From positions 33,814 through 97,813 of the forward strand of contig JAKSVI010000001.1 in assembly GCA_024408095.1 (NCBI GenBank): a stretch of DNA of 64,000 nucleotides, in the 5' to 3' direction. The stretch's first letter is position 1, and every line of letters begins with the position of its first letter. A model generated the notes under the pieces. That model did no database searches and was not told the origin of the DNA. It saw only the letters and a list, made by a program, of their open reading frames with translations. Below, piece by piece: positions 7,654-58,998 of this stretch. Made by a program: the position numbers and the translations under genes. This DNA is from Bacilli bacterium. GTDB taxonomy: Bacteria; Bacillota_I; Bacilli_A; RFN20; CAG-826.

Positions 7654-8664
7654 GTGGACAAAATTTGTATATTAGGAAGCGGTACTTGGGGTACTGCTTT
7701 AGCAAATAATTTAGCTGAAAAAGGATTAGAAGTTACCTTATGCTCAAAATTTAAAGAAGATAACGATAAATTAAAAGCAAGTCTCGAACATCCTAATTTA
7801 CCTGGGACAAAACTTAATAAAAACATAAATTTTGTTTATGAATTTTCAAAGGCAATTCCTGGAAATGATATTGTCTTATTTGCGGCCCCATCTATTTTTA
7901 TTAGAGAAAGTGCTGTCGAGGCTAAACCTTTTTTAAATGAAAACCAGATATTAGTATGTGTTGCTAAAGGTATTGAAGAAAACACTTTATTTACAATGAA
8001 CGAAGTCATCCAAGAAGTTGTAGGGGATAAATTTAAAATAGTGGCTTTATCAGGGCCTACCCATGCAGAAGAGGTTGTAAAAGGACTTCCGACATGTATC
8101 ACAGCCGCTTCATTTGATAGAGATGCAAGAAAATATATACAAAAAGTTTTCACGCATGATCAATTTCGTGTCTATACAAATAGTGATCCAAAAGGAGTTG
8201 AAGTTGGAGCAGCATTAAAAAACATTATTGCCTTAGCGTGTGGCATTTCTGATGGACTTGGATACGGCGATAACGCCAAAGCAGCAATTATAACTAGAGG
8301 TTTGTTTGAAATTACCAATCTTGGTAGAGCCATTGGCTGCGACCCTTTAACATTTTTGGGATTATCAGGCGTTGGTGATATAGTCGTTACAGCCATTTCT
8401 AATCATTCACGCAATCATAACGCTGGCTATTTAATTGGAAAAGGATATTCTGTTGAAGAAACATTAGCAAAGGTTGGAATGGTTGTTGAAGGAATTAACT
8501 CATTGAATTCCGCCATTAAACTTGCTGAGAAATATAATGTTGAAATACCAATTATTTCAACTGTTTATGACATTATTAAAAACGGAAAATCACCAAAAGA
8601 AAGCGTTAATGATTTATTTGCTAGAAAATTAATAGGCGAAAAAGTATTTCAAAGTAAAGAATAA
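7654..8664 (+). CDS. gpsA: NAD(P)H-dependent glycerol-3-phosphate dehydrogenase
   Basis: N-terminal Rossmann motif ILGSGTWGTALA. 336 aa. Confidence 0.9.
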   Translation: MDKICILGSGTWGTALANNLAEKGLEVTLCSKFKEDNDKLKASLEHPNLPGTKLNKNINFVYEFSKAIPGNDIVLFAAPSIFIRESAVEAKPFLNENQILVCVAKGIEENTLFTMNEVIQEVVGDKFKIVALSGPTHAEEVVKGLPTCITAASFDRDARKYIQKVFTHDQFRVYTNSDPKGVEVGAALKNIIALACGISDGLGYGDNAKAAIITRGLFEITNLGRAIGCDPLTFLGLSGVGDIVVTAISNHSRNHNAGYLIGKGYSVEETLAKVGMVVEGINSLNSAIKLAEKYNVEIPIISTVYDIIKNGKSPKESVNDLFARKLIGEKVFQSKE

Positions 8665-13982: not shown

Positions 13983-14031
13983 AAATTAATAAAAATTGAA
14001 AAAACTTCCGAACTACTTATATAGGAGGTTT
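13983..14031 (+). promoter_or_regulatory. Copy 1 of a conserved 49-nt leader element (promoter-like TTGAAA-N16-TATATA plus inverted repeat AACTTCC-N14-GGAGGTT covering the SD), 8 nt upstream of comEA
   Basis: AAATTAATAAAAATTGAAAAAACTTCCGAACTACTTATATAGGAGGTTT. It is at least 96% identical to copies at 33331-33379 and 57371-57419 (minus strand). Confidence 0.7.
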
Positions 14032-14039
14032 TTTTATTT

Positions 14040-14576
14040 ATGTTCAAAATAATTATCGGTGTAATTATTGCGGGAATACTTGCAATTGGCGCATTCATGA
14101 TATTAGATCCAAATATCAAAATAGCAAACAGCACGCAAGATCCAACAGTTGACACCACAAACACATTCCAAGTTTCTATTGAAGGAGAAATTTTTAAAAG
14201 TGGAACGTACACGCTACAAGAGGGCGCGACAATGAATGATTTAATTACGGCGGCTGGCGGATTAACAAATAACGCTGATGAATATGCATTCTTTGAAGAT
14301 GCTGTTTTAACAAAAGGCCAGAGCTATTATATAGCTCCAAAATTTGATGTAGGAGATATATGCAACCAAAACGAAATTAAGAAGGTGAACATTAATAGTG
14401 ATGAAAGCGAAACATTACTGTCAGTTAACGGTTTTACAACCTCAATTGTATCTTCAATCATTTCATATCGAACAGAAAATGGTGCCTTTTCAACAATTGA
14501 AGCATTGATGGATGTTTATGGAATTGGCAATGCCACGTATCGTAAAGTACGAAACTATGTAATATTGCATAAGTGA
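14040..14576 (+). CDS. comEA: Competence protein ComEA (DNA receptor: TM anchor, SLBB domain and tandem helix-hairpin-helix)
   Basis: 178 aa. N-terminal TM, SLBB-like region (GTYTLQEGATMNDLITAAGG) and C-terminal HhH (FSTIEALMDVYGIGNATYRKV). Confidence 0.8.
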   Translation: MFKIIIGVIIAGILAIGAFMILDPNIKIANSTQDPTVDTTNTFQVSIEGEIFKSGTYTLQEGATMNDLITAAGGLTNNADEYAFFEDAVLTKGQSYYIAPKFDVGDICNQNEIKKVNINSDESETLLSVNGFTTSIVSSIISYRTENGAFSTIEALMDVYGIGNATYRKVRNYVILHK

Positions 14577-16582
14577 AGCTACTATTTCTCTTTCTTTCTA
14601 TATTTTTAGGCTTTTCTTTATTTTCATCGCCAATTGGATTTGGAATAACATTCGTAATTTTAATAATCTGTTCAATTAAAAGATTTAAGGCAAAATTTAC
14701 TATTCTTTGTTTGCTTTTATTCACAGTTTTTACATTATTATCGCTTATTAAACTAAATGTTATTAGGGATTGTTACCAAGGAGTTGTAATCGAGGCGAAA
14801 GAAAATTATGCAATTTTACTATGCAGATTTGAAAGAATATATCTACCTATTAAAGAAAATAATATAGAAATAGGTGATATCATTAACGTAACTGGGACAA
14901 AAAGTGATTTAAATTTTATCACGATTCAATCACAATTTGATTTCTCACATTATTTAAATAACAAAGGTATATTTAATCAATTAAATGTTGATACCATCAA
15001 TACAATATTTAAAAATCCAATACGTCTTAAACAGATAAGAATGGATTTTTTAAATCACTTTGACGAAAATACAAAATCATTAATCGGGAGCATATTGTTT
15101 TCTGAAGGGGAAACTGGTGAAGCAACCGAATTGATGAGTCAGTTGCATCTATCAAGATTAGCAACTGTATCTGGCGTTTATATCTATGCTTTTCTTAAAA
15201 TGCTAAATGGTCTTTATTCTCGTAAATTTAGCGAGAAAAACTCTAAAATTTTAGCATTAATTACCTTATCGCCATATTTAATTTTTACATTCAATAAGTT
15301 ATCGATTAAAAGAATTGTTTTTCTATATATATTCAGATTAATAAATGAGTATAAGTTCAATAAAAAGATAGACAATTTATCCATAATTTCCATAATCGCT
15401 ATTATATTTCTATTATTAGATCCATATTTATCTAGGCAGGATTCATTCATATTAGGATTTTTTATACCGATTGTATCCCATTTTATTAATCAGGCCTTTC
15501 GAAAGAAGAAAAAAACTAAAAAATATATATTATCATCATTATTAATTTATGTTTTTTATATTCCGTTTGAAATTAAATTTTTTAACGAAATTTCACCTTT
15601 ATCAATTGTTTTTCAAACAATATATTCGCCGATATTTATTTTATTAGCTTTGTTCTCGCTTTTATGTTTTATTAAAATTCCTTTGTATCCAGTTGTTAAC
15701 ACACTAGCTAAAGGTTGCACCAACTTACTTGGATGGTGCAACAAAATTAATCCAAAACTGTTTATACCGCCATTCCCAGATTGGCTAACTCTGATTTATT
15801 ATTTATTATTCGCCCTTTGTTTGGTCTTAATAACTATTAAATTATTACCTATTTCAAGATTTATTTTTGTTATATCAATATGCTTGTCGATTATTTATGT
15901 TCTCCCAATACAAAATTTTGTTACCGCTGAAGTAGATTTTATTAATGTTGGTCAGGGTGATTCGTGTTTAATTAGATATAAAACAACAACCATTTTAATA
16001 GATACTGGTGGCTCCTTATACCTAGATGTTGCAAAAGATTCTTTAATTCCTTATTTAAAAAGTAAAAGAATCTACAACATAGATTGCGTTATTACGACCC
16101 ATGATGATAACGACCATAAAGGAGCATTAGAAAGTCTTTGCAGCAATTTTAATGTAAAAGAATATATAAATGATATCGGCAATTTTCCATTGTCTTTTAA
16201 TAATTTAACCTTAATAAACTACAATAATTTTGTTTCTGAATGGAAAGAAGAAAATGACACAAGTTTGGTGATTGGATTTGCTTTGTGTGATACAAATTTT
16301 TTAATCATGGGTGATGCACCTAAAAAAATAGAAAATCTAATTATGAAAGAGTTTGACTATATACCTTGTGACGTTTTAAAAATAGGACATCATGGTTCAA
16401 ATACATCTACAAGCGATAAATTCATTAAGTATTTGAAGCCTCAAGATGCAGTCATATCGGTTGGCAAAAATAAATACGGTCATCCAGATAGTTCAGTAAT
16501 AGGTATTTTAAAAAATAATAATGTAACAATTAAAAGAACAGATAAAATTGGCACAATTATATATTCATATTATTGCTTTTAA
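14573..16582 (+). CDS. comEC: DNA internalisation competence protein ComEC/Rec2
   Basis: 669 aa polytopic membrane protein with a C-terminal metallo-beta-lactamase domain (INVGQGDSCLI, HDDNDH, GHHGSNTSTS). It overlaps the comEA stop by 4 nt. Confidence 0.85.
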   Translation: MKLLFLFLSIFLGFSLFSSPIGFGITFVILIICSIKRFKAKFTILCLLLFTVFTLLSLIKLNVIRDCYQGVVIEAKENYAILLCRFERIYLPIKENNIEIGDIINVTGTKSDLNFITIQSQFDFSHYLNNKGIFNQLNVDTINTIFKNPIRLKQIRMDFLNHFDENTKSLIGSILFSEGETGEATELMSQLHLSRLATVSGVYIYAFLKMLNGLYSRKFSEKNSKILALITLSPYLIFTFNKLSIKRIVFLYIFRLINEYKFNKKIDNLSIISIIAIIFLLLDPYLSRQDSFILGFFIPIVSHFINQAFRKKKKTKKYILSSLLIYVFYIPFEIKFFNEISPLSIVFQTIYSPIFILLALFSLLCFIKIPLYPVVNTLAKGCTNLLGWCNKINPKLFIPPFPDWLTLIYYLLFALCLVLITIKLLPISRFIFVISICLSIIYVLPIQNFVTAEVDFINVGQGDSCLIRYKTTTILIDTGGSLYLDVAKDSLIPYLKSKRIYNIDCVITTHDDNDHKGALESLCSNFNVKEYINDIGNFPLSFNNLTLINYNNFVSEWKEENDTSLVIGFALCDTNFLIMGDAPKKIENLIMKEFDYIPCDVLKIGHHGSNTSTSDKFIKYLKPQDAVISVGKNKYGHPDSSVIGILKNNNVTIKRTDKIGTIIYSYYCF

Positions 16583-32154: not shown

Positions 32155-33297
32155 ATGGCAGAAAAGAAAGATTATTATGAATCTCTAGGTGTAAGCAAAA
32201 ACGCTAGCAAAGACGAAATCAAAAGTGCCTATCGAAAATTAGCAAAAAAATACCATCCAGACAACAAAGAAACTGGTAGTGAAGCCAAATTCAAAGAGGT
32301 TCAAGAGGCATATGATGTTCTTTATGATGACCAAAAACGAAGCGCGTATGACCAATTTGGGCATGCTGCTTTTAGCCAAACGGGTGGTGGTCCAGGAGGT
32401 GGAAATCCATTTAATGGTGCTGATTTCTCCAATTTCCAAGGATTTGGTGACATGGGTGGATTTGGTGACATTTTCTCCTCATTTTTTGGAGGCGGATCCC
32501 GTTCTAATAGAAACACCGGCCCAACACAAGGTGAAGACATGGTCATGCGTGTCAAAATTGACTTTATGGATGCTGTTTTGGGAAGAGATATTGAAATATC
32601 TATTAATCACGATGAAGAGTGCCCAAATTGTCACGGAACCGGTGCAAAAACACCAAACGATATAAGAACATGTCCTACTTGCGGTGGAACTGGTTCAGTT
32701 CGTATGCAAAGAAGAACAATGTTCGGAGTTATGGAAAATCAAGAAGTTTGTCCTAACTGCCACGGTAGTGGAAAAGTTATTTCTGATTATTGTCCAAAAT
32801 GTGGTGGAAAAGGCTATGTTAGAGTTAAAAAACAACTCAAAATTCATATTCCAGTTGGCATCAATGAAGGTCAGCAGATTCGCGTTGCAGGAATGGGCGA
32901 AATCGGGCAAAGGGGTGGCCCACATGGCGATTTATATGTCGAAGTCACCATCAAACCACATCAATATTTCAAACGCGAAAGAAATGATATTCATATAAAT
33001 GTTCCAATTGATTTTACTGACGCTATTTTAGGAACTAATCTTGATATTCCTACTGTAAACGGCGATGTTTCTTTAACAATTCCACCTGGTACTCAAGTTA
33101 ATCAAATTTTAAGAATGAGAGGTCAAGGAATAAAGGATTTAAGAAACGGAAAGCCAGGCGATCAATATGTCCATCTTGATATCAAAATGCCTTCTAATTT
33201 AAATAAAGAGCAGAGAGCAATTTTAGAGAATTATCGAAACACTTATACCAAAAAAGACTCATGGTTCTCAAAATTCAAAAAAAATTTCACAAATTAA
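32155..33297 (+). CDS. dnaJ: Chaperone DnaJ (Hsp40)
   Basis: 380 aa. J-domain HPD (KYHPDNK), G/F-rich region, four CxxCxGxG zinc-finger repeats. Confidence 0.95.
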
Positions 33298-33318
33298 GAC
33301 CCTTTGGGTCTTTTTTTA
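33298..33318 (+). terminator. Rho-independent terminator after dnaJ
   Basis: AGACCC-TTT-GGGTCT followed by TTTTTTT. Confidence 0.7.
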
Positions 33319-33330
33319 TTCTCAAAAAAT

Positions 33331-33379
33331 AAATTAATAAAAATTGAAAAAACCTCCGAACAACTTATATAGGAGGTTT
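33331..33379 (+). promoter_or_regulatory. Copy 2 of the conserved 49-nt leader element, 4 nt upstream of the ATG of the C39-like membrane protein
   Basis: AAATTAATAAAAATTGAAAAAACCTCCGAACAACTTATATAGGAGGTTT. It has 2 mismatches against copy 1. The inverted repeat AACCTCC/GGAGGTT is perfect here. Confidence 0.7.
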
Positions 33380-33383
33380 AAAA

Positions 33384-34577
33384 ATGTATTTTATCCAACA
33401 AAGTAATGACAGCGATTGTGGCTTCGCTTGTCTAAAAATGATTCTCGCTATTAAAAATAAGGATAAAAATTATCTATATTTGTTTTGTCCAGATATTGAA
33501 CATAAAAATTATTCTTATAAAGAGTTAATTGATTTAGCGAAACAAAACGGTTTATCTTTAAACGGTTATCGGTTTACAAACAAACTCGAAATCAAAAAGG
33601 AAAAAAATTTTCCATTTATTGCGTCAATCAGGAATGCCAATCATGCAGTAGTGATAAAGAGCATCAAGATGGGACGTGTAAAAATTTATGATCCAAGTTT
33701 AGGAGTATATTCACTTTCTCTCAAGAAATTTTGTGAGATTTGGGATGGAACAGCTCTGCTTGTTGAAAGTTTTGAAAAGAGGCAATATCCATTTGCAATA
33801 GATAATATATTATCTATAAAACATCGAATTTGTTTAGCATCTTTGCAAATTTTTGATGTTATATTATGTGCATTAGCAATTTTCTTTATGGACAAAAAAT
33901 ATCCAAGTATTTTAATGTGGATATTCACAATCGCATTTATATTGCTAGCAATTATAACGCTTTTTTATTCATTCAACATTTCCAACAAAATGGATAAAAA
34001 ATTTGAAAGTAAAGCTAGTAATGTTAAAAGTAACAAATATTACGACTACTATATAAATTGTGAAAAATTAAAAGCTAAAACAATAAGTTATCCAACCAAT
34101 TTTATAAGTGCATTGTTTATTTCCGTAATTGCGATGGTAATTATTTTATTAAACGGTTATATCAATATTGTATATATCGTTTCATGTTTAGTTGTTGCAA
34201 TTATTAGAGCGCTTCTTGTCGATCCATATACAAGAAAAAAGAATGTCACAATGTACGAACTAGAAAATAAAATGCGAAATCTTAATAATCTCAATGATTA
34301 TATGTCCAACGTAAAATTATGCCACGCCCATTCTAAAAGCTATTCCAAGGTTGTTCTAATCGGAACAATCATTGAAGTTGTTACATTAATGATGATTCCA
34401 GTCATTATGATGCTGTCGAACAACATCGCGAATGTAACTTATGTCTTATTATATTTGTGCCTTGAGTTATGTTTATCTAAATCATTACGAGATTTGCTTA
34501 ATTGTAGCAACGATAAAAACGACTACCATTTGCTTCTATCTAATTTCTACAATCAAACAAATAATAAAAACAAGTAA
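33384..34577 (+). CDS. Peptidase C39-like domain fused to a polytopic membrane domain (no ABC ATPase domain)
   Basis: 397 aa. The N-terminal roughly 140 aa contain the C39 catalytic signature QQSNDSDCGFACLKMILAI (Cys), His in ANHAVVIKS and Asp in KIYDPSLG. At least 5 predicted TM helices follow. There is no Walker A or B. Confidence 0.6.
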   Translation: MYFIQQSNDSDCGFACLKMILAIKNKDKNYLYLFCPDIEHKNYSYKELIDLAKQNGLSLNGYRFTNKLEIKKEKNFPFIASIRNANHAVVIKSIKMGRVKIYDPSLGVYSLSLKKFCEIWDGTALLVESFEKRQYPFAIDNILSIKHRICLASLQIFDVILCALAIFFMDKKYPSILMWIFTIAFILLAIITLFYSFNISNKMDKKFESKASNVKSNKYYDYYINCEKLKAKTISYPTNFISALFISVIAMVIILLNGYINIVYIVSCLVVAIIRALLVDPYTRKKNVTMYELENKMRNLNNLNDYMSNVKLCHAHSKSYSKVVLIGTIIEVVTLMMIPVIMMLSNNIANVTYVLLYLCLELCLSKSLRDLLNCSNDKNDYHLLLSNFYNQTNNKNK

Positions 34578-34610
34578 TAATCAGACAGTTATCTGTGATA
34601 AAATCAAAGT

Positions 34611-35057
34611 ATGAATTTTGATTTCACATCATATAATAAAAATTTTGATAACTATGAAGCAATTTTTATTCAAATAGCCGAAAAAGCCTTAAAGTATTTA
34701 GAAATTAAAGCTGACATCACTTTAAGTGTGTCACTAGTTGACAATAAGTTTATTCACCAGTTAAACAAGGAATACCGCAAAATCGATTCCCCAACTGATG
34801 TAATATCGTTCGCCTTTTTAGACAACAATGTTAATAGAGAAAAATTATTAAAATCTACTGCAAGTTTAGTATTGGGTGATATTTATATCTCAATAGAAAA
34901 AGCCAAACAACAGGCCGCTGAATATGGCCACAATATCGATAGAGAACTATCTTTCTTGTTCGCTCATGGATTATTGCACTTATTAGGTTACGATCATATG
35001 ACAAAGCAAGATGAAGAAATTATGTTTCCACTTCAAGAAAAATTACTATCTTTATAA
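34611..35057 (+). CDS. ybeY: Endoribonuclease YbeY (rRNA maturation factor)
   Basis: 148 aa. Zinc-binding HGLLHLLGYDH motif. Confidence 0.9.
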   Translation: MNFDFTSYNKNFDNYEAIFIQIAEKALKYLEIKADITLSVSLVDNKFIHQLNKEYRKIDSPTDVISFAFLDNNVNREKLLKSTASLVLGDIYISIEKAKQQAAEYGHNIDRELSFLFAHGLLHLLGYDHMTKQDEEIMFPLQEKLLSL

Positions 35058-35071
35058 GGAGAGATGCGTTT

Positions 35072-35476
35072 ATGGACAAAATGGAATTAATTGAAAAAGC
35101 AAAAGAAGCTAGAAACCTTTCTTATTCGCCTTACAGCAACTTTGCAGTTGGCGCTGCAATTTTATGCAAAGACGGGAGAATTTTCTTAGGTGCAAATGTA
35201 GAAAATGCTTCTTACCCTTTATGCATGTGTGCTGAAAGAAATGCAGTATACAATGCATATATGAATGGCTACAAAAAAGATGATTTTGAGGCTCTTGCGT
35301 TATGTACCGATACAGATGAGCCATCTTCACCTTGTGGAGCATGTAGACAGGTTTTAAGTGAATTATTTCCAGCTAAGGCGCCAATTTATATGAGTGCAGT
35401 TAATGGCAAAATAGTGGAAACCACAATTAAAGAACTCTTGCCATATGCTTTTAGCGAAGAAGATTTGAAAAAATGA
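35072..35476 (+). CDS. cdd: Cytidine deaminase
   Basis: 134 aa. CAERNA and PCGACRQ zinc-binding motifs. Confidence 0.9.
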   Translation: MDKMELIEKAKEARNLSYSPYSNFAVGAAILCKDGRIFLGANVENASYPLCMCAERNAVYNAYMNGYKKDDFEALALCTDTDEPSSPCGACRQVLSELFPAKAPIYMSAVNGKIVETTIKELLPYAFSEEDLKK

Positions 35477-36360
35477 AATCAGGTTTTGTTTCCATTTTAG
35501 GCAGACCAAATGTTGGCAAATCAACGCTTTTAAATGCGATATTGAATCATAAAATCAGTATTGTTACAGATAAAAGTCAAACAACAAGAAATACAATCCG
35601 CGGTATCTATAATAGCGATCATTCACAAATTATTTTTATTGATACTCCAGGAATTCACAAACCATATGCTAAATTGAGTCAAGAAATGAACAATATGGCT
35701 TATTCTTCTGCTCATAATGCCGATATCAATATTCTTGTAGTTGATTCTGGCGAACAATTTGGCGATGGTGATGAATATATTTTGTCCCATTTAGATATAA
35801 GCAACACACCGTTGATAATTGTTTTTAACAAAATTGATTTAACAAGAATTGATAAAATTACTAAATTAAAAGAAATTTATTCAAATAAGTTTCCGAAAGC
35901 AGTTTTAATCGAAACAGTAGCAAAGGAAAAGTTTAACGTTGATCAACTTATTTCTAGTATTGAAGCTTTGCTTCCTGAATGCGAAAGATACTATAGTGAT
36001 GATTTATTATCTGATAAGGATGAAATTTTTCAAATAAAAGAAATTATAAGAGAAAAAACTTTAAAAATATTAAAACAAGAGGTCCCACATTCTATCGCTA
36101 TTTATATTGATAACATTGAATGGGAGAAGAATCCAATGCTGATTCAGGCCACAATTTTTGTCGAAAAGGAAAGCCAAAAAGGAATCGTGATTGGAGCCAA
36201 CGGCAAAAGAATTAAACTTATTGGTCAAAAATCAAGAGAAAGTATAGAAGCATTGTTGCATAAACATGTTTATTTGGAGCTACTTGTAAAAGTTGAACCA
36301 GACTGGCGAGACAACCCTGAACTTTTAGAAAAATTTGGATACAAATACAAAAACAATTAA
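35473..36360 (+). CDS. era: GTPase Era
   Basis: 295 aa. G1 GRPNVGKST, G3 DTPG and KH domain at the C-terminus. Confidence 0.9.
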   Translation: MKSGFVSILGRPNVGKSTLLNAILNHKISIVTDKSQTTRNTIRGIYNSDHSQIIFIDTPGIHKPYAKLSQEMNNMAYSSAHNADINILVVDSGEQFGDGDEYILSHLDISNTPLIIVFNKIDLTRIDKITKLKEIYSNKFPKAVLIETVAKEKFNVDQLISSIEALLPECERYYSDDLLSDKDEIFQIKEIIREKTLKILKQEVPHSIAIYIDNIEWEKNPMLIQATIFVEKESQKGIVIGANGKRIKLIGQKSRESIEALLHKHVYLELLVKVEPDWRDNPELLEKFGYKYKNN

Positions 36361-37073
36361 TGAAATGCATAATTATTTCAACTAAAAAATATAAAGAGAA
36401 GGACGCTTTAATAACCGCTATAACAGAAAAAGAAGTTATAACGTTCCATGCCAAAAGTGTCTTAGATTCAAAAAGTAAATTCACTTTTCTGAATGTTCCT
36501 TTATCTAAAATTGATGTCACCTTTATTGAAGGAAAATATAAATACCCTTTAATGAAAGAAGCATCTATAGTTTCTAGCCCTTTGAAAAATAAATCGACAT
36601 TATATCAAATGTCTTTATTAATGCTAATTCAAGAAGCGATAAATGGCATGCTTCAAGAAGAGGAAAAATATTTAGTTTATCCGATATTATCTGATATTTT
36701 AGATAATTTAGATAAAAATGTTTCTCCACAATTCATATCAATTTATTTTTTATGCCATTTGTTAAAAATATCGGGATATGAATTTGAATTGAATCGCTGT
36801 TTATTTTGTGGCGAAAAGAAAGATATTGTCGCTTTTTCCTTTAAAGATGGTGGATTTGTTTGCCGAAACTGTATAACTGATGACATAGATCAAGACTTAA
36901 CTGTCGAACAAATGAAAATTATTTTAGCTTTATTTAAGTCACAAAACATATCTGATCTTTCTAAATATGAATTTTTAAATGAAGATATTATGGACTTATT
37001 CAATAAATTGAATGTTTTCATTATTGACAACTATTCAATTCGTTTGAGAAGTCTAGACTTATTAAATAATTAA
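36360..37073 (+). CDS. recO: DNA repair protein RecO
   Basis: 237 aa. OB-fold N-terminus and zinc finger CLFCGEKK...CRNC. Conserved era-recO-glyQS synteny. Confidence 0.8.
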   Translation: MKCIIISTKKYKEKDALITAITEKEVITFHAKSVLDSKSKFTFLNVPLSKIDVTFIEGKYKYPLMKEASIVSSPLKNKSTLYQMSLLMLIQEAINGMLQEEEKYLVYPILSDILDNLDKNVSPQFISIYFLCHLLKISGYEFELNRCLFCGEKKDIVAFSFKDGGFVCRNCITDDIDQDLTVEQMKIILALFKSQNISDLSKYEFLNEDIMDLFNKLNVFIIDNYSIRLRSLDLLNN

Positions 37074-56798: not shown

Positions 56799-57367
56799 TT
56801 AGCCATTATTATTCACAATCATTGCAAAATAAGCATTAATTAATAGGTTGACTTTAACCTCATTTAACATTGTAACATATCCATATTCTTCATCATCTTC
56901 TTCGGATAAATGTAGATTTTTGTCCCCAATAGCTTGACGTTTGTAAATTCGTAATTTATCAATTGCGCGTATTTGGTTAACAACAGCCAATGTTGAAGAT
57001 GTTGTGCCTAATCCAGGTATTATGCCTAAATCAAGATCACTTCTTGGATGTGCTCCGTTGTGATTTGTTTTTAAAGACAAACAATAACAAGCGGATTAAA
57101 TTCATTTGAATCCATAAGTACAACGCCATAATGCCTATTTGAAAATTCAGCATTAACATTTAATCCCCAATCAATTTCATAAATTTCACCGCGTTTAAGA
57201 TTGTATCTTAACTTATATTGCTCTGAGAAAGTTATATATTCCATCTGCCTTTTCATCCAATCAAGTTGATCTCTCATTCCTCCATAACGACCACCTTCAG
57301 ATGTAGGAAACCTGTCCTTTTTTATAACGCCAAACTTTTCATTGGAGCTAACTTCTAACTCATTCAT
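56799..57367 (-). pseudogene. MazF/PemK/EndoA-family endoribonuclease toxin gene interrupted by a frameshift at about 57071-57080, with an unusual roughly 55-aa N-terminal extension
   Basis: Two overlapping minus-strand ORFs (57071-57367 and 56799-57080) together align to B. subtilis EndoA/NdoA and Kid: RGEIYEIDWG...GVVLMDSNEFNPLVIVC | LSLKTNHNGAHPRSDLDLG...AVVNQIRAIDKLRIYKRQAIGDKNLHLSEEDDEEY. The break falls in the run CTTTAAAAAC. No antitoxin gene is adjacent. Confidence 0.6.
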
Positions 57368-57370
57368 AAA

Positions 57371-57419
57371 AAACCTCCTATATAAGTAGTTCGGAAGTTT
57401 TCTCGATTTTTATTAATTT
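57371..57419 (-). promoter_or_regulatory. Copy 3 of the conserved 49-nt leader element (minus strand), ending 3 nt upstream of the mazF-like ATG
   Basis: The minus strand reads AAATTAATAAAAATCGAGAAAACTTCCGAACTACTTATATAGGAGGTTT. It is identical to copy 1 except that TTGAAA becomes TCGAGA. Confidence 0.7.
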
Positions 57420-57434
57420 TTTTGAAAATTTTTT

Positions 57435-58019
57435 CTAAATTTTAATTAAAGCTTTGCTTTCTTTTTTTATTTTTTTCTCATAAATCAATGAAGATATCAT
57501 TCTAGAGGTCGCTTCTCTTGTTAAAAATAACTTATTTGCAAGTTCAGTTATACTTTTGTAATGAATGATTCCACCATTAATTTGAAAATAATAATCTAAA
57601 CGCTCAGTTGCCTTTGAAAAATTAAGAATTTTTATCTGCGAATTTAAAGTTTTACAAAATTCTGATTGCATATTGAGATAGCGTGATAGAAATTCTGTGT
57701 TATCTTTAAGTATGGAAACAAAATTATCCTTGGAAAAAAAGATTACTTTTGATTGTTCGACTGAAACAACATCGCCTTTATATGCAGAATCGCTCGAAAA
57801 AATCAAATTATTGCCAAACATCATACCAGGTTTAATAATATTAAAAACTACTTCCTTGCCACTATCTAAATATGAAACAATCTTTAGCTTACCTTGAAGC
57901 AAAACACCTATGTTACTACAAATTTCATCTTCTGAGAAAATTGTCGAGCCCTTTAAAAAGCTTTTAATATAACCTGTGCTAAATTCGTCTTTAGTTAATA
58001 CATCTAAAATATTTGTCAT
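57435..58019 (-). CDS. Crp/Fnr-family transcriptional regulator (cNMP-binding domain plus C-terminal HTH)
   Basis: The cyclic-nucleotide-binding-like beta-roll (GVLLQGKLKIVSYLDSGKEVVFNIIKPGMMFG) and C-terminal HTH (ITELANKLFLTREATSRMIS). The ORF-track start at 58145 would overlap the divergent lipoprotein gene by 68 nt, so the internal Met at 58019 is preferred. Confidence 0.7.
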   Translation of the reverse strand: MTNILDVLTKDEFSTGYIKSFLKGSTIFSEDEICSNIGVLLQGKLKIVSYLDSGKEVVFNIIKPGMMFGNNLIFSSDSAYKGDVVSVEQSKVIFFSKDNFVSILKDNTEFLSRYLNMQSEFCKTLNSQIKILNFSKATERLDYYFQINGGIIHYKSITELANKLFLTREATSRMISSLIYEKKIKKESKALIKI

Positions 58020-58021
58020 AT

Positions 58022-58037
58022 CGTGATTATAATCACA
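58022..58037. promoter_or_regulatory. CRP-like palindromic operator GTGA-N6-TCAC in the divergent intergenic region between the Crp/Fnr gene and the lipoprotein/permease genes
   Basis: cGTGATTATAATCACa is a perfect 4-6-4 palindrome matching the CRP half-site core TGTGA-N6-TCACA. It overlaps a TATAAT-like hexamer. Confidence 0.5.
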
Positions 58038-58077
58038 TATTTGTATATAAAAGTCCACTATTATATTAAGGAGAATT

Positions 58078-58998
58078 ATGAAGAATTTACTATTACTACC
58101 ATTACTAAGCATATCATTAACATCCTGCGGAAATTGGATATCCAAAGGATTAACAATTATTTCACCAACCGGAGCACCAGCAATTGCATTTTATAACCAT
58201 TATGCCAACAGCGCTTTTGAAACAAATAGCATCCCAGGCAATATAGTTGCGATGATGGTTGGCAAAAATGCAAAAGATATAGTTGTAATTGATATTACAA
58301 GTGGAATATCTGCTATTAATCAAGGAGTCAATTACAAATTGGCTGCATGTTTAACATTTGGCAATTTCTATCTATGTGGCACAGGAAATGATGAAAATAA
58401 GCAATTAAATCCAGGAGATAAAATTATATTGTTTAAACGACATGGACTCCCAGATATTGTATTTCATTACTTGTATGGCAACGAATATGATTCACAAATA
58501 CAATATGTCGATAGCGCAGCAACAGCGAGTACCTGCCTTGCAAAAGGAAAAGATTTGAATAATAATCCAATTGACTATGTTTTCCTAGCGGAACCTGCGG
58601 TTACGACGGTTTTAAACAACAAACAAGCACCAACTTATGGAAAATCATATGTTTATAGAAGTATTCAAGAAGATTTTAAAGAAAAATCTGGTAAAGATAT
58701 GATTCAAGCTTCTATTTTCATTAATAACAATGTTACAAAATCTGATGCTGTTTCATTTCTGAATGGTCTTCAAAAAGATATAGCAGAAGGAATTTTAAAC
58801 CCTTCTGTTGTAAAAGAATGTATAGAAAAAGATGCTAATAATCGATATGGAATGACACCTGATCAAGCATATAATTGTTTGTTAACAAATACTATTGGCT
58901 TAGGTTTTAAAGATGCATACGAAATGAAAGATGACATAGATAACTTTGTTACTCTTTTTGGATTGGAAAAGACACATGAAGAAATTTATTTCAAATAA
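58078..58998 (+). CDS. Lipoprotein, probable ABC-transporter substrate-binding component
   Basis: 306 aa. Lipobox LTSCG after an N-terminal signal peptide (MKNLLLLPLLSISLTS-C). Cotranscribed with a downstream TauT/NitT-type permease. Confidence 0.55.
   Translation: MKNLLLLPLLSISLTSCGNWISKGLTIISPTGAPAIAFYNHYANSAFETNSIPGNIVAMMVGKNAKDIVVIDITSGISAINQGVNYKLAACLTFGNFYLCGTGNDENKQLNPGDKIILFKRHGLPDIVFHYLYGNEYDSQIQYVDSAATASTCLAKGKDLNNNPIDYVFLAEPAVTTVLNNKQAPTYGKSYVYRSIQEDFKEKSGKDMIQASIFINNNVTKSDAVSFLNGLQKDIAEGILNPSVVKECIEKDANNRYGMTPDQAYNCLLTNTIGLGFKDAYEMKDDIDNFVTLFGLEKTHEEIYFK

Follow-up and report, generated by a model that had tools for sequence, protein, structure and literature searches.

The stretch of DNA analysed here, referred to as the window, comprises 64,000 nucleotides of a Bacilli bacterium (GenBank assembly GCA_024408095.1, contig JAKSVI010000001.1, positions 33,814 to 97,813 of the forward strand) and carries on its plus strand, at 33384–34577, a gene for a 397-aa protein in which a C39 peptidase domain is joined to a six-helix membrane domain, a homologue of the peptidase-bearing ATP-binding cassette (ABC) transporters (PCATs) that has no nucleotide-binding domain (NBD). 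This C39 gene is flanked by dnaJ (32155–33297) and ybeY (34611–35057), the latter starting 33 nt after its stop codon, and ybeY is followed on the same strand by the equally invariant neighbours cdd (35072–35476), era (35473–36360) and recO (36360–37073). A scan of positions 33200–34700 returned a single terminator-like site, the intrinsic terminator of dnaJ (33296–33312, plus strand; stem AAGACCC/GGGTCTT and then a T-run), and none between the C39 gene and ybeY. The dnaJ terminator separates the dnaK operon from the unit headed by the C39 gene and, since no other terminator precedes ybeY, this unit probably includes ybeY-cdd-era-recO. A scan for sigma-70 promoters reported no site between the dnaJ terminator and the C39 gene. 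Directly before the gene lies a leader block of about 49 nt (33331–33379, plus strand), which is the second of three copies in the window.

The 397-aa protein is a genuine member of peptidase family C39, as profile, conserved catalytic set and papain-like fold all agree. The Pfam model PF03412 (Peptidase_C39) covers residues 2–129 (33387–33770, plus strand) at 72.8 bits (E 3e-20, profile positions 3–130 of 133), where the gathering score is 22 bits, and a phmmer search against PDB sequences paired residues 4–136 with the PCAT1 peptidase domain at E 5e-9 (4ry2 and entries related to it). The motifs DCGFACL (Cys12), NANHAVV (His87) and IYDP (Asp103) coincide in the latter alignment with DCG, HFVV and ADP of PCAT1. 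The catalytic codons, placed by alignment to PCAT1, are those of Gln6 (33399–33401), Cys12 (33417–33419), His87 (33642–33644) and Asp103 (33690–33692), all on the plus strand. Using Foldseek, the peptidase part was matched to LahT (6mpz; root mean square deviation 2.6–2.7 Å, template modelling (TM) score on the target 0.75–0.78) and to ComA (3k8u and 5xe8), with TM-scores of 0.75–0.80 overall and, in the fold alignments, 27–29% identity to the domains of LahT and PCAT1. The best-scoring C39 references were those of bacteriocin processing, namely the bacteriocin-processing C39 model and the LahT, ComA and PCAT1 structures. All NCBIfam matches of the protein fell far below their cutoffs, which leaves it outside every curated family. 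Two features read directly from the sequence, namely how lysine and arginine are spread over the loops and that the peptidase comes first in the chain, indicate that the peptidase is cytoplasmic as in PCATs.

The remainder of the protein is a membrane domain of about 250 aa (residues 145–392; 33816–34559, plus strand), with a predicted ABC-exporter-like fold of six long helices, at residues 145–167, 175–213, 216–256, 259–298, 303–345 and 351–392 according to the model and DSSP. An AlphaFold2 model built from a 41-sequence alignment (mean predicted local distance difference test (pLDDT) 89, predicted TM-score (pTM) 0.81) consists of an alpha/beta domain and then the six helices. When both domains were compared with PDB by Foldseek, the best match was PCAT1 with its substrate (6v9z, E 1e-13, TM-score 0.61 on the query), and ATP-free inward-facing states of PCAT1 matched better than the ATP-bound outward-facing 7t54 (TM-score 0.42). 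High confidence thus attaches to the prediction that the whole chain folds as the peptidase and membrane domain do in inward-facing, ATP-free PCAT1. As the TM-score of the whole chain exceeds that of either domain alone, we infer from the model that the peptidase is placed against the membrane domain much as in PCAT1. The membrane part alone matched TAP, McjD, MsbA and BmrCD, and HlyB structures were also among the fold matches. At the level of sequence, Pfam gave no match to the membrane domain of the window protein at E≤0.1, ABC_membrane included; a 24-sequence profile of this domain found in PDB at best MsbA, in the right register and at a non-significant E of 1.8; and scans of 24 members one by one against Pfam and NCBIfam at E≤1 returned no recurrent family for it. 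An exporter-type membrane domain is nonetheless suggested by the predicted fold together with the fusion to C39, a domain whose typical fusion partners are ABC exporters. The protein stops just past helix 6, its last residue being 397, and neither ABC_tran nor any other ATPase domain was matched in it by Pfam or NCBIfam. In the model, helices 2–5 retain cytoplasmic extensions of about 40 residues each, helices 2–3 and 4–5 are joined by turns of 2–4 residues, and the separate coupling helices, with which exporters grip the NBD, are missing. The domain also falls short of its PCAT1 counterpart by about 65 residues, the 397 residues of the protein being spread over 461 alignment columns. These tight turns and the shortening, as modelled, fit a protein that no longer docks an NBD.

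Relatives of this protein are numerous and uniform. A search of 5.8 billion proteins gave 43 relatives, nearly all of 391–408 aa and 30–35% identical, with C39 as their sole Pfam domain, and a profile search of 1.84 billion cluster representatives gave at least 357 clusters (50% identity) at E≤1e-30. Among the best 150 of these, nearly all were 377–415 aa long and matched end to end, about 10 being shorter and fragment-like. In 179 diverse members the catalytic residues were conserved in 98% (Gln6), 177 of 177 non-gap rows (Cys12), 99% (His87) and 98% (Asp103), and the membrane-domain residues Asp204, Lys230, Asn257 and Glu294 in 96–97%, with Asn261 as a further conserved polar position. The catalytic Gln/Cys/His/Asp set is thus under strong purifying selection, and the conserved membrane-domain residues argue for more constraint than a simple anchor needs. 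The initial annotation, made from the sequence, had proposed a C39 domain with a Cys/His/Asp set, its fusion to a multi-transmembrane domain without an ATPase, and a start codon 4 nt past the second leader copy. All three proposals are borne out, the first by the Pfam score, the PCAT1 alignment and a conservation of 98–100%, the second by the six helices, the lack of ABC_tran and the structural match of the model to PCAT1, and the third by a 30-mer that ends at 33379 before an ATG at 33384, in a leader that is real.

The window protein departs from the family consensus at three membrane-domain positions that are well conserved in other members, having Met for Pro178 (84% Pro; nt 33915–33917), Ala for Glu189 (83% Glu; nt 33948–33950) and Leu for Phe356 (82% Phe; nt 34449–34451). 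As it has Ala at 189, the membrane-embedded Glu is not essential in every lineage. A distant subfamily, 24–29% identical to the window protein, carries the active-site motif KDCAF. A metagenome-assembled genome (MAG) supplied the sole source name found for the cluster, the generic [quoted passage not shown], and no description of PCAT-like proteins without an NBD was found in the searchable literature.

The genomic context was followed in flanks of 8–10 kb, synteny being assigned by tblastn with the window's own proteins. One genome per species was scanned, giving 47 loci, all from MAGs of uncultured Bacilli from rumen, gut and faeces and one of them named Candidatus Fiminaster equi; a second scan with a KDCAF subfamily query gave nine metagenome loci, for 56 loci in total. 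Wherever downstream sequence is present, ybeY-cdd-era-recO-glyQS-dnaG come next, and ybeY starts 12–184 nt past the stop of the C39 gene in 47 of the 48 loci where the gene is complete and sequence beyond it is available. The linkage to ybeY holds in the KDCAF subfamily too, and the synteny spans genomes whose DnaG is only 36–49% identical to that of the window. The exception is locus L023, where a 1.4-kb insert (L023:9191–10602) with two open reading frames (ORFs), of 175 aa on the minus strand and 189 aa on the plus strand and both with signal-like N-termini, separates the C39 gene from ybeY. In another locus a mere 91-aa remnant of the C39 gene is found (L041:307–582).

On the other side, dnaJ adjoins the C39 gene only in closer relatives. 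In distant genomes 4–7 kb lie between the two, with genes that, from inspection of their translations, appear to be those of a tadA-like deaminase, a small TM2-type membrane protein, rsmE, mtaB, deoC and small ribosomal proteins. The conserved linkage is with ybeY, and the adjacency to dnaJ is a derived state in close relatives. Since the linkage to ybeY is stable across diverged genomes, the C39 gene belongs to the ancient core of this clade, passed on vertically, and is not an insertion. The initial annotation had seen it as inserted between the dnaK operon and ybeY, at a junction that it held to be usually direct. Neither view stands; in 47 of 48 loci the gene directly precedes ybeY-cdd-era as a fixed neighbour, housekeeping genes fill the dnaJ-ybeY interval of distant relatives, and an insertion or island at this junction is ruled out by the synteny in 56 loci. 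In Bacillus subtilis, too, many genes lie between dnaJ and ybeY, so that the junction is not usually direct. The initial annotation had further reckoned with a gene ubiquitous at this junction and of known, unrelated function; the ubiquity at the ybeY junction is what was found, whereas no such function exists.

No gene for an NBD partner or an accessory protein was found in the flanks of the 56 loci, the neighbours being housekeeping genes throughout, and no full-length relatives were present in collections of plasmids and phages, where ordinary “peptidase domain-containing ABC transporters” alone matched, through their C39 domain. A regular-expression scan for small ORFs with double-glycine leaders in the window and the 47 loci returned only spurious ORFs within genes, in agreement with the earlier claim that no such peptide gene is visible nearby. 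An ABC ATPase of about 511 aa, which by inspection is of a two-domain ABC-F-like type, was noticed in the dnaJ-to-C39 interval of three distant genomes, L021 (1851–3386), L024 and L030. It is an unlikely partner, since it is missing from the other loci and lies kilobases upstream rather than adjacent to the C39 gene.

The leader that precedes the C39 gene deserves separate consideration. Its 30-mer occurs in three copies within the 64 kb at two mismatches or fewer, with 0 matches in 100 shuffles, and each copy ends 4–8 nt before a start codon. The first (13983–14031, plus strand; 30-mer 14002–14031) is immediately upstream of comEA (14040–14576) and comEC (14573–16582), the identity of which was confirmed by Pfam, and the third (57371–57419, minus strand; 30-mer 57371–57400) is immediately upstream of a frameshifted PemK/MazF-like gene (57367–56799). 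In the copy of the C39 gene a 5′ arm AAACCTCC (33350–33357), a 14-nt loop (33358–33371) and a 3′ arm GGAGGTTT (33372–33379) form an 8-bp hairpin, AAACCUCC / GGAGGUUU, whose 3′ arm is the Shine-Dalgarno (SD) sequence, with GGAGG at 33372–33376, 7 nt before the ATG. The minimum free energy of this hairpin is −11 kcal/mol (z −3.1), z ranging from −2.5 to −3.5 across the three copies; the first and third copies have a C-to-U change by which the pair is kept as G-U.

Conservation of the leader hairpin was judged from pair-type counts anchored on the SD, from per-sequence folding and from a control of pairing probability against neighbouring genes. The sequence upstream of the orthologues differs by species, and almost all of these regions fold into an equivalent anti-SD/SD hairpin. 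The median SD pairing probability of the C39 gene was 0.89, with 95% of loci above 0.7, as compared with medians of 0.10–0.63 for dnaK, dnaJ, hrcA, dnaG, cdd and glyQS and 0.78 for era in the same loci, which marks the SD hairpin as particular to the C39 gene. Moreover, four positions 3′ of GGAGG pair across species with AU, UA, CG, GC or GU partners, that is, with compensatory variation. RNAalifold returned no consensus on a MAFFT alignment of the 5′ leaders because the stem positions are offset between species. No Rfam family matched in the window or the leader, and an exact-pattern scan of metagenome contigs found no further copies. The simplest reading of the hairpin is that it holds down translation of the membrane protease, or makes it conditional, on an mRNA that also carries the essential genes downstream. 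As for its sharing by comEA-comEC, the C39 gene and the PemK-like gene, co-regulation and a general damping module for proteins needed in low amounts are equally compatible with it, and the link to competence through the shared leader is no more than suggestive.

Several further observations touch this leader. One clade of orthologues (L018, L022, L023, L026, L027, L029 and L040) is without the SD and the hairpin and has instead a conserved CTTATATAT about 17–25 nt upstream of the start of the C39 gene, near locus position 7970–7995 or equivalent. In L026, L027 and L029, TTGATT or TTCAAA stands before this CTTATATAT at a distance of 17 nt, an arrangement like a sigma-A promoter with a very short leader. 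In the window, CTTATATA, the same as the motif of that clade, stands in the hairpin loop and is preceded by TTGAAA at 16 nt; by eye, this TTGAAA-16-TATATA overlaps the hairpin of the C39 gene. If a promoter overlaps the hairpin in this way, transcripts starting inside it may escape SD sequestration. At the third leader copy, the window has on its minus strand (56799–57367) two overlapping ORFs of 98 and 93 aa that make up one frameshifted PemK/MazF-like toxin gene with an N-terminal extension of about 57 aa; their merged translation matches PF02452 with 35 bits (cutoff 23.1), and the frameshift, in the run “tgtctttaaaaac” near 57075, marks either a pseudogene or an assembly error. Directly upstream of the same copy (57435–58145, minus strand) is the gene for a 236-aa Crp/Fnr-like cyclic-nucleotide-binding protein, a candidate regulator.

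Among known systems, PCAT1 of Clostridium thermocellum, ComA, LahT, CvaB and NukT share with the window protein the N-terminal cytoplasmic C39 domain, the Gln/Cys/His/Asp set and, going by the model, the six-helix membrane domain. They differ from it in having an NBD, its own membrane domain being shorter by the 65 or so residues noted above, tightly turned and beyond recognition by sequence. Their genes differ as well, because next to the window gene there are none for a substrate, for immunity or for accessory functions, and its place is a housekeeping locus beside ybeY rather than a bacteriocin or quorum-sensing cluster. As it has neither the NBD nor the usual genomic association, the window protein would be misclassified among the PCATs or the ABC transporters. 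Transporters of the HlyB type, which carry a C39-like domain (CLD), resemble it in the fusion of an N-terminal papain-like domain to an ABC-exporter membrane domain, which in the window protein is a predicted one, yet HlyB has an NBD and its CLD, without the catalytic Cys, performs no cleavage. In fact, C39-like domains by definition have no Cys and do not cleave (PMC6363468).

Two other comparisons bear on how such a protein could work without an ATPase. SbmA and BacA are ATPase-free peptide transporters that are related to ABC membrane domains and driven by the proton gradient. They serve as an analogy only, lending plausibility and not membership, as they show no sequence match, have no peptidase domain and are importers. 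Stand-alone C39 domains such as LahT150 cleave double-glycine leaders by themselves and independently of ATP, although as soluble constructs or small proteins. Several excised C39 domains are, however, poorly active without the transporter core (PMC6363468), and for this reason the family may have retained its membrane domain. Cleavage by PCAT1 depends on the transporter core and takes place in the ATP-free state (PMC6959990, PMC6363468); once ATP binds, the peptidase is undocked and the pathway becomes open to the outside (PMC6959990).

The explanation that we lean towards is that the window protein descends from a PCAT, has lost the NBD and acts as a membrane-bound leader peptidase, competent for cleavage and without an ATPase of its own. 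Since cleavage by PCAT1 needs the core and the ATP-free state, the version without an NBD would represent the cleavage-competent form deprived of the ATP switch. The ancestor would be an exporter of the PCAT type, also called ABC transporter maturation and secretion (AMS) type, of which the C39 peptidase and the six-helix domain were kept as the NBD was lost. The protein, which is probably a dimer as exporter membrane domains generally are, would recognise a precursor whose leader is of the double-glycine type and whose gene lies elsewhere in the genome. Cleavage would take place on the cytoplasmic side of the membrane while the cargo sits within or next to the cavity of the membrane domain. 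This domain may serve to activate the protease or to hold it in position, and possibly to take up the cargo, and the product may be released passively, by the proton-motive force, laterally into the membrane or through another transporter. The SD-sequestering hairpin would hold translation low or conditional, the essential downstream genes being co-transcribed. A fuller version, in which a naturally ATPase-free PCAT processes and perhaps releases a conserved cellular or competence-linked precursor, as a core gene with ybeY and era and with a hairpin switching its translation in common with comEA-comEC, is possible but more doubtful.

Several points weigh against this explanation. No substrate was found, and protease activity and double-glycine specificity are drawn from homology. 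How the peptidase docks against the membrane domain is read from the global TM-score and not from model coordinates, while the ABC-exporter nature of the membrane domain is a matter of predicted structure, sequence profiles matching nothing significant. Furthermore, flanks of 8–10 kb leave room for an NBD supplied in trans or for pairing with a full ABC half-transporter in a heterodimer, and the tight linkage to ybeY and era may point to a role other than peptide export.

The first of these openings leads to a split or heteromeric ABC exporter, to which the NBD would come from a separate gene or by pairing with a full-length ABC half-transporter. The cytoplasmic extensions that helices 2–5 retain in the model would suit such a protein, as Asp204, Lys230 and Glu294, which are located there, could form a docking surface. 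We regard this arrangement as unlikely, because an ABC ATPase partner is absent beside the C39 gene in 56 of 56 loci and because the only ABC ATPase seen, the ABC-F-like protein of L021, L024 and L030, is kilobases upstream and missing from most loci. The model, in addition, has 2–4 residue turns where the coupling helices would be expected and a membrane domain some 65 residues short of that of PCAT1.

The linkage to ybeY and era raises, with a similarly small probability in our view, the idea of a housekeeping protease tied to these genes that matures or degrades a conserved cellular protein, such as a membrane or ribosome-associated one, with the membrane domain as a scaffold. Near-universal adjacency to ybeY at operon-like spacing and the absence from plasmid and phage records, in a context that is housekeeping and not accessory, speak for it. 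Yet it is with the bacteriocin-processing C39 model and with the structures of LahT, ComA and PCAT1 that the domain reaches its best scores. Moreover, unrelated membrane proteins are often found near ybeY, as with pgpH and dgkA in Bacillus and ybeX in E. coli; adjacency to ybeY, therefore, need not mean a shared function.

It could also be supposed that the protein is a competence factor, co-regulated with comEA-comEC, that processes a pheromone, a fratricide-type peptide or a pilin-like precursor for DNA uptake. C39 exporters such as ComA do process streptococcal competence pheromones, ComA peptidase structures are among the fold matches, and one of the three near-identical leaders in 64 kb stands directly before comEA-comEC. 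Nevertheless, another precedes a PemK/MazF-like toxin gene, and the SD hairpin of the orthologues varies in sequence and is kept regardless of com genes. The C39 gene, besides, is co-linear with the essential ybeY and era, the leader could be a translation-damping module for low-abundance or toxic membrane proteins, and as its pattern was not found in the metagenome collection no wider regulon is defined; altogether, we find a role in competence quite improbable. A substitute for the prepilin peptidase, which the link to comEA brought to mind, is unlikely as well, as C39 recognises a long amphipathic GG leader and prepilin leaders are short.

Finally, a decaying remnant, that is, a truncated PCAT gene or a protein with an inactive C39-like domain of the HlyB type, as the missing NBD and a membrane domain diverged past sequence recognition might suggest, is the sole rival effectively excluded, because the catalytic and membrane polar residues are conserved, with Cys12 invariant (never lost in 177, which rules out a CLD protein) and a length of about 395 aa that is uniform over at least 357 clusters (which, with the catalytic residues, rules out a truncated pseudogene), and synteny is kept across genomes whose DnaG has diverged to 36–49% identity.

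The anatomy of the protein is clear, and its family is large and conserved and fits no curated NCBIfam model. The annotation “C39 domain-containing protein” hides a distinct family that deserves a model of its own. PCATs are defined by the strict coupling of leader cleavage to ATP-driven export. As a protease and a membrane domain have been kept here long after the loss of the ATPase, the retained parts must have a selectable function of their own, and the family offers a natural system for the contribution of the transporter core to cleavage and for the ATP-free exit of small cargo. C39 proteins usually sit in accessory bacteriocin or quorum-sensing loci. A core-gene context beside ybeY and era in uncultured, small-genome Bacilli of gut and rumen is unexpected for C39 and points to an unrecognised conserved substrate, and the conserved SD-sequestering hairpin adds a regulatory layer. 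If the protein is indeed an ATPase-free PCAT, leader-dependent maturation or export of peptides would have gained a new mode, and the cleavage by PCATs could be separated from their transport in a natural minimal system.

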